From the IMG/VR virus record IMGVR_UViG_2548876960_000009: a stretch of 33,030 nucleotides of DNA. One strand, given 5' to 3'. The notes under the pieces were generated by a model, which saw nothing but the letters and a program-made list of their open reading frames with translations, had not been told where the DNA came from and did no database searches. Source of the stretch: a virus. Lineage: Duplodnaviria; Heunggongvirae; Uroviricota; Caudoviricetes. Positions 23,288-27,444 of the stretch are shown here, one piece after another (the stretch's first letter is position 1; each line of letters opens with the position of its first letter). The position numbers were made by a program, and so were the translations under genes.

Positions 23288-23677
23288 TCAGGCGGCTGCA
23301 CCCGCCGTTTTCTCGTACTTACTGATAGTGATCTCGACCTTCCCTTCCGGGATAACCGGTCCCCACTCCACCAGCATTCTTTTCACCTGACTGTCGTCTT
23401 CCCACACACCCGCGTGGGTCAGGGCGTCAAACAGCGCCTTGTTATAGTTGTCCAGATCGCGGATCCGGTTATCCGGAGGAAACAACACGATCTCCACTGA
23501 AGCAGGTGCCGACGTTGGTTTTGGCAAACGACGTAACTGCTCAACTATTGCTGCACACGCCGCGCTCTGGAATTTGCGCCCCGCCGCGCTTATCAGGCTC
23601 TTACCAGCAAACGCCCCTTTGTTGGGGTGTCGCCAGTACGTGTTCACGCTGGGCGGAAAAGGCAGGATCAGCTTCAT
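23288..23677 (-). CDS. rusA: RusA-family Holliday junction resolvase
   Basis: 129-aa ORF MKLILPFPPSVNTYWRH...RDLDNYNKALFDALTHAGVWEDDSQV..., RusA catalytic D-x-D-N motif region; ATGA overlap with the Dam stop. Confidence 0.8.
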   Translation of the reverse strand: MKLILPFPPSVNTYWRHPNKGAFAGKSLISAAGRKFQSAACAAIVEQLRRLPKPTSAPASVEIVLFPPDNRIRDLDNYNKALFDALTHAGVWEDDSQVKRMLVEWGPVIPEGKVEITISKYEKTAGAAA

Positions 23678-24327
23678 GCCACCATCTCCCTGACCAGTTT
23701 TTCTGCCTGCTGGCGAACCTGCGCCAGAAAGGCCTCACCACATGCCTCAAGTTCATCGCGCCCGATGTAGCTGATTGCCGGTCCCTTCCAGGTCTTGTCA
23801 AAAACAGCAATAGCACCAGCGAAGAAAGCGCCTGTCGGCACCTGCTTCTCATCTTTCGGGATAAACCAGGCAGGCAGTTCAAAACCAATACGCCCGCGAA
23901 TAAAAGCAATATGGTCCGCATCTTCCGGCCACCACACTTCGCTGGTGGCAGCTTTGATCAGGAAAACATAGCGCCCGCCCTTATCACGCATGGCACTGGC
24001 ATGTTTCATGATGTAACGCATGCCGGTGATGTATTGCCCCTCATGCTGACTGGCGCGACTGTATGGGGGATTGCCAAAGGCAGCACCTTTAAGCTCCGCA
24101 AGGCGTTCTGACCAGTCATGCGCCAGCGCGTTGTCTTCCGCCGTGTAATACGCGGCACATTTGGCGTTATCACCGTCAGTGAACAGATCCAGAACAAACG
24201 GGCCAAACAAGGTGTTAATTCCCCAGAAAATGCTGTCCGGCGTGCGCCACTGATCGCCCACCTCCTTCAGTTCATGGGATGGTTTGTTCCGCAGCTCCAC
24301 CAGCGCCTGACAATATTTATTACTCAT
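23674..24327 (-). CDS. Phage DNA N6-adenine methyltransferase (Dam-like)
   Basis: From ATG at 24327: MSNKYCQALVELRNK...; contains NPPY (GNPPYSRASQ), the amino-methyltransferase motif IV. Confidence 0.8.
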   Translation of the reverse strand: MSNKYCQALVELRNKPSHELKEVGDQWRTPDSIFWGINTLFGPFVLDLFTDGDNAKCAAYYTAEDNALAHDWSERLAELKGAAFGNPPYSRASQHEGQYITGMRYIMKHASAMRDKGGRYVFLIKAATSEVWWPEDADHIAFIRGRIGFELPAWFIPKDEKQVPTGAFFAGAIAVFDKTWKGPAISYIGRDELEACGEAFLAQVRQQAEKLVREMVA

Positions 24328-24419
24328 TAAGCCCCCACGTAAAAAGCATCCGCAATGTCTCCGGAAGTACACCCCGGATGGGCTTCAATGAATTTCTGAA
24401 CTTCATTCAAAAGACTCAT
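24327..24419 (-). CDS. 30-codon micro-ORF coupled between the replication gene and dam
   Basis: ATG at 24419-24417 preceded by GGGGGTG; translates MSLLNEVQKFIEAHPGCTSGDIADAFYVGA; its TAA overlaps the dam ATG (TAATG). Not in the ORF track; may not be expressed. Confidence 0.25.
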   Translation of the reverse strand: MSLLNEVQKFIEAHPGCTSGDIADAFYVGA

Positions 24420-24421
24420 GA

Positions 24422-25363
24422 TCACCCCCTGAATCCTGCCGGGATCTGGCTGTAGTCCACGTTGTCGTAACTGGCTTTGAAGTACGGATCTTCGCGTTTT
24501 TCTGTGTACGTGCTGACGGACGGCGATAAGCGCAGGGAAAGCTCATCCCATTTTTCCCGCAACTTCGACGGGCTGAGCACGTTACGGCACCAGAACGGAT
24601 CGCGGCTGACGCGGCTGTACATCTCGCAGATTTGTTTGTGAGTACGACCATCCTGCACACACATCAGGCGAATTTCGTTTGCCCAGGCTGTCCAGTTCGG
24701 TTCTTTGGGACGAACCACCTCGCCGTCACATTCGGCGGCCTGCTCGTACAGGGCGATGATTTTTTTCCAGAGCCACTGTGCGCAGGTCAAATCATCCTGC
24801 GTTCCCCACTGGCGCTTTTTAGGGCTGAATACAACCGCATCAGGATGGTGATTTAAAAACTCCTGTTCAGCCTTCTGCGTGTCCGGTTGCGAAGCGTCCG
24901 GACGAGAAGTTTTTTTATCTGACGGATCATGTTTTGATTTTACTGACGGATCCCCGCCAGATTCTGACGGGTGAAAACCCGCTTTTTTGCCAGATTTCGA
25001 CGCATCAAATTTTGACGGGTCAGATTTTGATGCGTCAGATTTTGACGGGTCAGAATCTGACAGTTGAGAAAAAGCCGCAGCCTGAAGCTTCGCAACGTTA
25101 AGCTGATAAACATTCGACGCATTGCGGTTACCCTGGCGACGCGCCTTACGCGTTAACCAGCCTTCTGCTTCCAGCCGTGCGATAGCCGTTCTGACGGTAC
25201 TCATCCCCGCGCCAATCTGACGGGCAATGGTTTCAATTGATGGCCAGCACACACCTTCGTCATTACTGAAATCAGCCAGGCGGGCCATAATTGCCACGCT
25301 GGATAATTTCATGCCTGACGCTGCGCAACCATCCCATACATAGCCGGTTAATTTAGTGCTCAT
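24422..25363 (-). CDS. Replication initiator protein (N-terminal winged-HTH, O-like function) with internal origin iterons
   Basis: 313-aa ORF; N-terminus ...VAIMARLADFSNDEGVCWPSIETIARQIGAGMSTVRTAIARLEAEGWLTRK...; the central low-complexity region (SDSDPSKSDASKSDPSKFDASKS) is encoded by tandem DNA repeats; GAGGT 5 nt upstream. Confidence 0.75.
   Translation of the reverse strand: MSTKLTGYVWDGCAASGMKLSSVAIMARLADFSNDEGVCWPSIETIARQIGAGMSTVRTAIARLEAEGWLTRKARRQGNRNASNVYQLNVAKLQAAAFSQLSDSDPSKSDASKSDPSKFDASKSGKKAGFHPSESGGDPSVKSKHDPSDKKTSRPDASQPDTQKAEQEFLNHHPDAVVFSPKKRQWGTQDDLTCAQWLWKKIIALYEQAAECDGEVVRPKEPNWTAWANEIRLMCVQDGRTHKQICEMYSRVSRDPFWCRNVLSPSKLREKWDELSLRLSPSVSTYTEKREDPYFKASYDNVDYSQIPAGFRG
24916..25067. 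repeat. Iteron array (putative replication origin): eight ~15-bp repeats, five contiguous, consensus GATTTTGACGGGTCA
   Basis: Read directly: units at 24916, 24939, 24960, 24993, 25008, 25023, 25038, 25053; the last five abut exactly at a 15-bp period; a T-rich stretch lies at 24911-24917. Confidence 0.8.
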
Positions 25364-27307: not shown

Positions 27308-27335
27308 TTGACAATGTACCTTTGAGATACATAAT
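27308..27335 (+). promoter_or_regulatory. PL-like early-left promoter with overlapping operator half-sites
   Basis: TTGACA, 16-bp spacer, CATAAT; the spacer/-10 contain ATGTAC-ctttgag-ATACAT, the same ATGTAC-N7-GTACAT architecture as operator 1. Confidence 0.55.
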
Positions 27336-27444
27336 GTACCCAAGAGAAACAACGAACAGGCAGGACGCCCACGAAGTAGCCGCCTGGGGCATATGAAGTC
27401 CAGGATGATTCGTTAGCAACAAAAAAGCGCCCTACAGGACGCTT

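Follow-up and report, generated by a model that had tools for sequence, protein, structure and literature searches.

A putative replication origin within the initiator gene of a lambdoid prophage of the SfIV/SfII/CPS-53 type

The window analyzed here is the whole 33,030-nt stretch of the viral record IMGVR_UViG_2548876960_000009, which is a lambdoid prophage of the SfIV/SfII/CPS-53 type of E. coli and Shigella. Its minus strand carries a replication initiator gene (24422-25363; 942 bp, 313 aa), and within the coding sequence of this gene lies an array of 15-bp repeats (24915-25067), a candidate replication origin and the subject of this report. The initiator matched PHROG 391 ('replication initiation O-like') over aa 1-313 with E=1.6e-134, and Pfam HTH_36 matched at aa 23-70 with E=4.3e-11, so that the identity given to the gene in a first-pass annotation of the same DNA was upheld. 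The gene is 99.3% identical to that of gp41 of Shigella phage SfIV and 98.3% identical to that of the 'O protein family protein' of SfII. At least 80% of it was found in 1576 of 5426 complete E. coli genomes, and the prophage CPS-53 of E. coli K-12 carries a truncated copy.

The initiator consists of an N-terminal winged-helix domain, a linker encoded by the repeats, and a C-terminal domain similar to that of lambda O. The N-terminal domain (codons 1-97, 25073-25363, minus strand), which contains the HTH_36 match, is the presumed reader of the repeats. It also showed weaker matches to the GntR, MarR, DnaD_N, and RP-C winged-helix families; a sequence search of solved structures gave only weak MarR-type winged-helix matches (E ~0.009), and an NCBIfam search of the initiator gave nothing informative. 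The C-terminal domain (aa 166-277, 24533-24868, minus strand) is presumed to recruit the helicase. It aligned with lambda O aa 172-270 within a BLASTP alignment of E=4e-25, and tblastn found relatives of this domain in lambda, phage 21, and Stx phages at ~40% identity. BLASTP of lambda O against the window initiator detected no similarity in the N-domain. Judged from these matches, the initiator is a hybrid, in which an HTH_36 winged-helix N-domain, and not that of lambda O, is fused to a lambda-O-like C-domain.

To compare the array among relatives, we used an N-domain scan with one genome per species, which gave 80 loci, 67 of them usable, from more than 25 genera of Enterobacterales (Citrobacter, Kosakonia, Enterobacter, Buttiauxella, Kluyvera, Yersinia, Pantoea, Tatumella, Rahnella, Ewingella, Proteus, Providencia, and others). 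The N-domains of these 67 loci were 69-100% identical to that of the window, and all had an SDxSK-type linker. A position weight matrix was trained only on arrays of 66 other loci, which kept it independent of the phage type studied here, and then scanned over the window with a threshold of 8 bits.

The window array consists of eight copies of a 15-bp unit (iteron) with the sense TGACnnrTCArAATC, five head-to-tail and three dispersed. The first-pass annotation had described eight copies of ~15 bp, five of them contiguous, inside the initiator coding sequence and encoding its linker. This description was correct, with the qualification that five copies are strong and three degenerate. The array occupies codons 99-150 of the 313 and encodes SDSDPSKSDASKSDPSKFDASKS...DPSV..DPSD, each unit specifying an SD(P/A)SK pentapeptide of the linker. 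The head-to-tail iterons 1-5 (24993-25067, minus strand) were found by Tandem Repeats Finder, by repeat search, and by the weight matrix, which scored unit 1 (25053-25067) at 10.8 bits, unit 2 (25038-25052) at 25.5, unit 3 (25023-25037) at 23.6, unit 4 (25008-25022) at 23.0, and unit 5 (24993-25007) at 18.0, all on the minus strand. The isolated iteron 6 (24960-24974, minus strand; sense TCACCCGTCAGAATC) lies 33 bp past unit 5, start to start, scored 21.9 bits, and is near-invariant in the 67 loci. The degenerate iteron 7 (24939-24953, minus strand; sense GGATCCGTCAGTAAA) fell under the threshold of the matrix and contains a GATC at 24949; GATCCGTCAGTAAA in this unit is invariant across Enterobacterales, with GAT as the Asp codon in 100% of the loci. 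The degenerate iteron 8 (24915-24929, minus strand; sense TGATCCGTCAGATAA) scored 10.1 bits, has a GATC at 24925, is followed by an A7 tract, and is kept in orthologues as GAtCCAtCAG..AAAAAA. In the direction of transcription, the order is units 1-5 (25067 to 24993), an 18-bp variable spacer, unit 6, GGCGGG, unit 7, an A/T-rich spacer, unit 8 (24929-24915), the A7 tract, and an inverted repeat (24904-24881). The distal units 7 and 8 use GAT for Asp, where the tandem units in the window mostly use GAC, and this choice creates GATC sites that are invariant in the 67 loci.

The repeats are clustered far beyond chance. Tandem Repeats Finder, which had been proposed as a check, reported a period-15 array at 24991-25054 with 4.3 copies, 81% matches, and a score of 86-100. 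This was the highest-scoring tandem repeat of the window; all other tandem-repeat scores were at most 50, and the same program revealed no other multi-copy repeat cluster in the 33 kb. A gapless repeat search added copies at 24917 and 24943-24972. At 8 bits or more, the weight matrix had seven matches on the minus (sense) strand within the 153 bp of the array and, on both strands together, only three beyond 24915-25067. The window total at this threshold was 15 matches, whereas shuffled sequences gave 3.25 on average and at most 7. The strict core TGAYGSRTCA had five matches (0.82 expected), all in the array and nowhere else in the window.

The logo over 293 units reads T-G-A-C-n-c-r-T-C-A-r-A-A-T-C. 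There is an internal dyad symmetry in the units, with the core TGAC-nn-GTCA, so that TGAC and GTCA half-sites alternate along the array. The dyad that is recognized could be TGAC-nn-GTCA or, across two units, GTCA-rAATC-TGAC; the sequence is compatible with both. The isolated units share mainly CCrTCAGnA, which would fit binding of a monomer.

We next compared codon usage and synonymous sites in the 67 loci. Ser at position 4 of the unit was encoded by TCA in 480 of 551 cases (87%), compared with 16% of the Ser codons elsewhere in the same genes; Ser at position 1 was TCT in 212 of 305 cases (background 9%), and Lys was AAA in 289 of 290 (99.7%; background 62%). In a codon alignment, pairwise synonymous codon identity was ~0.2-0.7 in codons 1-97, rose to ~0.9-1.0 in codons 99-161, and was ~0.5 thereafter. 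As means over 2211 pairs, synonymous codon identity was 0.42 in the N-domain (codons 2-97), 0.85 in the linker (codons 99-161), and 0.90 in the distal block (codons 130-151), whereas amino-acid identity was 0.80, 0.60, and 0.70, respectively. The synonymous identity of the linker exceeded that of the N-domain in all 2211 pairs. A linker protein that changes faster than its own silent sites is the signature of a DNA element and indicates selection on the DNA. Both the codon skew and the synonymous identity point to the level of DNA rather than protein. Recent horizontal spread of the linker was considered as a cause of the DNA conservation and rejected, because the amino-acid identity of the linker is below that of the N-domain.

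These data bear on the possibility that the repeats are only a low-complexity SDxSK linker made by replication slippage, without function as DNA. The linker is compositionally simple and its copy number shifts in whole five-codon units, as slippage would produce. Against this stand the almost frozen synonymous positions and the fact that the amino acids change more than those of the N-domain despite the high codon identity. Furthermore, the best-kept stretch is the non-tandem part, TTTTsACCCGyCAGAATCTGGnGGGGATCCGTCAGTAAAtTCAAaacaaGAtCCAtCAG..AAAAAA, which lies beyond the reach of slippage-driven homogenization and is not explicable by it. Different N-domains also come with different linker repeats, as described below. 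We therefore regard slippage alone as hardly credible.

Synonymous constraint could also arise from an overlapping gene or a structured RNA. A 60-aa open reading frame (ORF) in another frame of the same strand (24940-25122, minus strand) and a 55-aa ORF on the opposite strand do run across the array, and Rfam gave weak hairpin-like matches. The 60-aa ORF had been called spurious, and it is best regarded as a by-product of the repeats and not a gene: stops interrupt both alternative sense frames of the constrained segment in 67 of 67 loci, and even the most open antisense frame runs through it in only 29 of the 67. A known RNA family was rejected likewise. The Rfam matches were all sub-threshold and to eukaryotic microRNA models (30.7 bits, with a gathering score of 97), and they are due to the dyad symmetry of the repeats. 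This explanation has a negligible probability. A terminator-like hairpin (CGGGT GAAA ACCCG, then T6) was seen on the plus strand, antisense to the initiator, at 24968-24990 in the spacer between units 5 and 6; as a terminator, the hairpin at 24968-24981 was rejected because it is not kept in orthologues.

The full extent of the synonymous-site constraint is 24881-25069 (codons 99-161), and this segment is the putative origin. It runs ~35 bp past the lower coordinate given for the array in the first-pass annotation and takes in two further features. The first is the most AT-rich 40 bp of the initiator gene (24905-24946, 72.5% AT), a candidate DNA-unwinding element that borders the array on its downstream side, overlaps units 7 and 8, and ranks at about the 97th percentile of 40-bp windows in the 33 kb. 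The second, read from the sequence, is an inverted repeat GTCCGG(N11)CCGGAC (24881-24904) that includes the perfect palindrome CGTCCGGACG and lies at a mosaic junction; many orthologues have GGTTGCnnnGCAACC at the same place. This inverted repeat could be a part of the origin or a recombination hotspot. Separately, a 17-nt inverted repeat with 88% complementarity pairs 24885-24901 with 25314-25330 (codons 12-17), 412 nt apart, and may be due to chance.

The extent of the constraint is also relevant to a second alternative, in which the repeats are initiator sites for autoregulation, copy control, or handcuffing, while the strands are opened and replication begins at another place in the phage genome. 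Plasmid iterons have such dual roles in replication and in autoregulation, copy control, or handcuffing. In accordance with such a role, the AT-rich element is weak, and neither DnaA boxes nor IHF consensus sites were found near the array. On the other hand, the window holds no second multi-copy repeat cluster, the constraint reaches past the repeats through the AT-rich block and the junction palindrome to 24881, as for a complete origin, and the layout is that of ori-lambda, where such sites are the origin. Exclusive use of the repeats for regulation thus seems quite unlikely.

Mosaic relatives were informative about which protein reads the repeats. In Citrobacter phage phiNP, the N-domain and the array correspond to those of the window (24885-25362, 83% nucleotide identity), whereas the C-domain is unrelated and belongs to Pfam Phg_2220_C. 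Klebsiella phage Kp4872-1 has the same N-domain and array with a C-domain that is only 65% identical. Thus the array is kept with three different C-termini (window, Kp4872, phiNP) when the N-domain is the same. The reverse case is mEp460_4F5, whose C-domain corresponds to that of the window (24422-24918, 96% identity) while its N-domain is of another type; in place of the window array, this phage has a 23-bp unit that includes GGTCAAAATGnC, in five or six copies. mEp460_ev081 has the N-type and the 23-bp unit of mEp460_4F5 with a C-domain of only 59% identity. Both mosaic junctions fall at the downstream end of the constrained segment, and 24885-24918 is common to both recombinant classes (mEp460_4F5 and phiNP). 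The same N-domain comes with the same array and an exchanged N-domain with a different array, which means that the array follows the N-domain and not the C-domain or the downstream genes. These patterns suggest that the N-domain and the iterons behave as expected of an initiator-iteron specificity module.

In a k-mer scan, SfV orf39, Hafnia phage Meifeng, Klebsiella phage Kp4856-1, and lambda each showed a unit of their own. In this crude scan, the copy counts of Meifeng and lambda were not above the codon-shuffle null, the lambda iterons being known from annotation, and the linker of phiARM81mr showed no array above the null. Among distant HTH_36 relatives (34-41% identity), three loci (L081, L082, L083) carried arrays of their own at codons ~96-151 that exceeded the codon-shuffle null, and the regular 21-23-bp array of a fourth (L080, codons 85-115) only equaled it; in the remaining three, the scan found no array after the N-domain.

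Copy number varies even where the N-domain does not. Among 80 viral contigs with identical N-domains, some arrays were one unit shorter or one or two units longer, and one E. coli genome has three extra units; each unit gained or lost changes the initiator linker by 5 aa. The copy-number variants among near-identical prophages, which include L004 (E. coli 52148), L090, L113, L121, L122, L127, and L149, span -1 to +3 units of 15 bp. The initiator gene also occurred at 82-89% identity in assemblies labelled as non-enterobacterial (L012, Vagococcus sp.; L036, Chryseobacterium sp.; L041, Martelella alba, a 742-bp contig), which are likely contamination or mislabelled contigs. The C-terminal tail of the initiator, REDPYFKASYDNVDYSQIPAGFRG (24422-24493, the last ~24 codons), is common to the window, mEp460_4F5, and SfV orf39, their N- and C-domains being otherwise unrelated. 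Variants of the tail are DVDYSLPENSGFRS/T in phiNP and Kp4872 and EIPPGFRG in ev081. It has the appearance of a portable docking peptide, whose target might be a host replication protein.

Part of the array has been described before in another context. In E. coli K-12, genomic SELEX (systematic evolution of ligands by exponential enrichment) with the LysR-type regulator SrsR (YgfI) gave its strongest peak at the 'yfdO/yfdP spacer', with an intensity of 1206 compared with 158-288 at nine other targets (PMC9181523). DNase I footprinting there protected 66 bp with four boxes, TCAaATTTTGa, TCAGATTTTGa, TCAGATTTTGa, and TCAGAgTcTGa, from which the SrsR consensus TCAGATTTTGC was derived, and yfdONMLK mRNA rose on overexpression of SrsR (PMC9181523). 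The word 'iteron' does not occur in that paper, and 'origin' is used only in senses unrelated to a replication origin (PMC9181523). We found that the four 11-bp boxes correspond to 25004-25060 of the window, that is, to units 1-4, straddling the junctions of adjacent units, and that they match it except for one base (A for G) in the last box. The published boxes of CPS-53 are thus the head-to-tail iterons. In an alignment with the window, CPS-53 differs by one base in the five tandem units and at six positions over 24860-25130. K-12 yfdO (locus L167, CPS-53) is an initiator pseudogene without its N-terminus, and it is because of this loss that the array looks intergenic in K-12.

It might be argued from this work that the repeats are primarily an SrsR site array controlling the downstream prophage operon and not an origin. 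The SELEX peak, the footprint over four boxes, and the mRNA response speak for such a function, and the K-12 sequence is only one base off units 1-5 of the window. However, intact phages have the array ~300 bp inside an ORF, and in mEp460_4F5 the array is replaced together with the N-domain though the C-domain is unchanged. The most conserved part, comprising units 6-8 and the AT-rich block, lies beyond the four listed boxes and has no match to the SrsR box, and all four boxes depart from the published consensus at the last base. The array is moreover retained, invariably together with this N-domain, in prophages of Proteus, Providencia, Yersinia, Pantoea, and others. Binding of SrsR leaves unexplained why the array covaries with the N-domain, why units 6-8 and the AT-rich block are conserved, and why the array is intragenic in intact phages; even if real, it would be compatible with an origin. 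Hence control by SrsR as the primary function is very unlikely. The binding is a real in-vitro observation that may be secondary or adventitious, since multiple near-palindromic sites make a strong SELEX target. It is also conceivable, though unlikely, that SrsR binds the tandem iterons in a genuine host-phage interaction, competing with or assisting the initiator and so tying prophage replication or early-operon expression to stationary-phase or oxidative stress. If so, the published 'SrsR box' would largely describe a phage origin and not a motif of the host regulon.

The repeats, then, are clustered beyond chance, are under purifying selection as DNA apart from their coding role, and are inherited as one module with the N-domain. 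Taken together with the layout, these results suggest that the array is the replication origin of SfIV/SfII/CPS-53-type lambdoid prophages, embedded in the initiator gene as ori-lambda is in gene O, and we put the probability of this reading at about 0.8. The first-pass annotation had proposed a putative origin inside the initiator, and every part of the proposal that sequence can address came out in its favor: the identity of the initiator, the selection on DNA, the covariation with the N-domain, and the resemblance to ori-lambda. What the data support is the premise of a functional DNA element whose sites are matched to the N-domain. That the initiator binds these sites, that the AT-rich segment unwinds, that the helicase is recruited, and that the repeats set the specificity of incompatibility would follow by analogy. 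In the proposed mechanism, the N-terminal winged-helix domain of the initiator would bind the eight TGACnnrTCArAATC sites to form an O-some-like nucleoprotein complex. This complex would destabilize the adjacent AT-rich segment at 24905-24946, which overlaps the two GATC-bearing distal sites. The lambda-O-like C-domain would then bring in the host replicative helicase, through host factors directly or through another partner. Transcription from the early rightward promoter would pass through the origin, as in lambda.

Several points weigh against this reading. The AT-rich element, at 72.5% AT, is modest and does not form a tract of its own. With one site every 15 bp, neighboring copies face different sides of the helix, whereas many iteron systems space their sites by about two turns. 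No homologue of P, DnaC, or DnaB accompanies the initiator in the replication module of the window (23674-25363) or in the annotated early right operon of SfIV, although the lambda-O-type C-domain binds P in lambda, and it is for this reason that the helicase step was assigned to host factors or another partner; relatives with a lambda-type N-domain do carry a downstream replication gene (P in phiARM81mr, a putative DNA replication protein in Meifeng). The 67 loci are related and the units are paralogous, so that the raw codon counts overstate independence, though the contrast with the N-domain within each locus controls for most of this. The only protein published as binding the repeats is the host LysR-type factor and not the initiator. 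Finally, the SfIV genome paper mentions no origin and the SfIV RefSeq record has no origin feature; in the literature, we found no described origin of SfIV, SfII, SfV, or CPS-53.

The neighborhood of the initiator follows the lambdoid order of S24 repressor (cI), cro-like gene, CII-like gene (Pfam Phage_CP76), two small ORFs, and initiator. Next to the S24 repressor gene, on its downstream side, a 20-bp repeat (AATGTACCCAAGAGAAACAT) occurs twice (27313-27351); the copies may be operator-like sites. An internal sigma-70 promoter was rejected, a consensus scan having shown none. On the 3' side of the initiator, the window has a Dam-family methyltransferase gene (23674-24372) and then a 129-aa ORF, which we take to be a RusA-type resolvase. 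The methyltransferase gene is missing from SfIV itself (PMC3851460), where by annotation a PerC-family gene comes after the initiator. The GATC sites of the distal units and the adjoining methyltransferase gene may link initiation to methylation or SeqA control.

The evidence supports a previously unannotated case of the well-known lambdoid origin embedded in an initiator gene, and the textbook picture of lambdoid replication is unchanged. With it, an origin could be annotated in a replicon type that ~29% of complete E. coli genomes (1576/5426) carry and that also occurs in prophages across Enterobacterales. The specificity module, consisting of the N-domain and the 15-bp iterons, should set replicative compatibility between co-resident lambdoid prophages. 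Added interest lies in three points. Synonymous-site conservation can delimit an intragenic origin to ~190 bp without experiment, the initiator is a hybrid without a partner loader, and the SrsR boxes appear to be phage iterons. In the last case, the strongest genomic target of SrsR/YgfI would be re-read as the relic of a phage origin that in K-12 has lost its cognate initiator domain by deletion; this affects the interpretation of the SrsR consensus and regulon.

The closest known systems include other O-like mosaic initiators. The mEp460-type initiators, SfV orf39, and those of Klebsiella Kp4856 and Hafnia Meifeng have the same three-part plan, the same array position, and mosaic junctions at the array ends, and several such initiators share the C-domain or the C-terminal tail ...DVDYSQIPAGFRG. 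Their repeat units differ, namely 23 bp (GGTCAAAATGnC), 21-24 bp (GGTGCAGGAG), 12 bp (CCGCACATGAAG), and 21 bp (CCGAAAACGG), one for each type of N-domain. Plasmid origins of the RepA, pi, and RepE type are similar in principle: a winged-helix initiator binds direct repeats, an AT-rich unwinding element adjoins them, and the iteron sequence sets specificity and incompatibility. In plasmids, however, the iterons are usually found outside the rep gene, measure 17-22 bp with a spacing of ~22 bp, and come together with DnaA boxes, whereas the window array is inside the ORF and had no DnaA box nearby. The SrsR boxes of K-12 yfdO/yfdP are the same DNA as units 1-4 but were treated as promoter-region operators of a host LysR-type regulator (PMC9181523); in the intact phage they are intragenic and paired with the initiator N-domain that K-12 has lost.

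The best-known parallel is ori-lambda, where the initiator ORF likewise contains direct repeats, flanked by the parts that encode an N-terminal DNA-binding domain and a C-terminal recruitment domain. The lambda iterons occupy codons 117-145 of the 299 of O and the window array codons 99-150 of 313, and these matching positions bear out the likeness to the lambda layout that had been pointed out in the first-pass annotation. Each repeat has internal dyad symmetry and an A-tract in both systems, and the C-terminal domains are homologous (BLASTP E=4e-25). The AT-rich tract of ori-lambda is downstream of the iterons (PMC7466680), and the candidate segment in the window is in the same relative position. 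The number of iterons varies among relatives in both cases, with four in lambda and six in Stx phages (PMC7466680) and ~7 to 11 in this replicon type. The residues that lambdoid iterons contribute belong to a linker not believed to touch DNA (PMC7466680), and here too the iterons encode the linker. The differences are equally clear. The N-domain of lambda O is Pfam PF04492 (Phage_rep_O; 5.7e-36), to which the window protein had no match at E up to 0.01. The window iterons are 15 bp at 15-bp spacing, whereas those of lambda are ~18-19 bp at 20-24-bp spacing; of the eight window sites, three are dispersed and overlap the AT-rich part, and the AT-rich tract of the window is weaker. In place of the P gene, a Dam-family methyltransferase gene follows in the window and a PerC-family gene in SfIV. 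On this comparison, the element would work like ori-lambda and O, yet the initiator, strictly speaking, falls outside the lambda O family.

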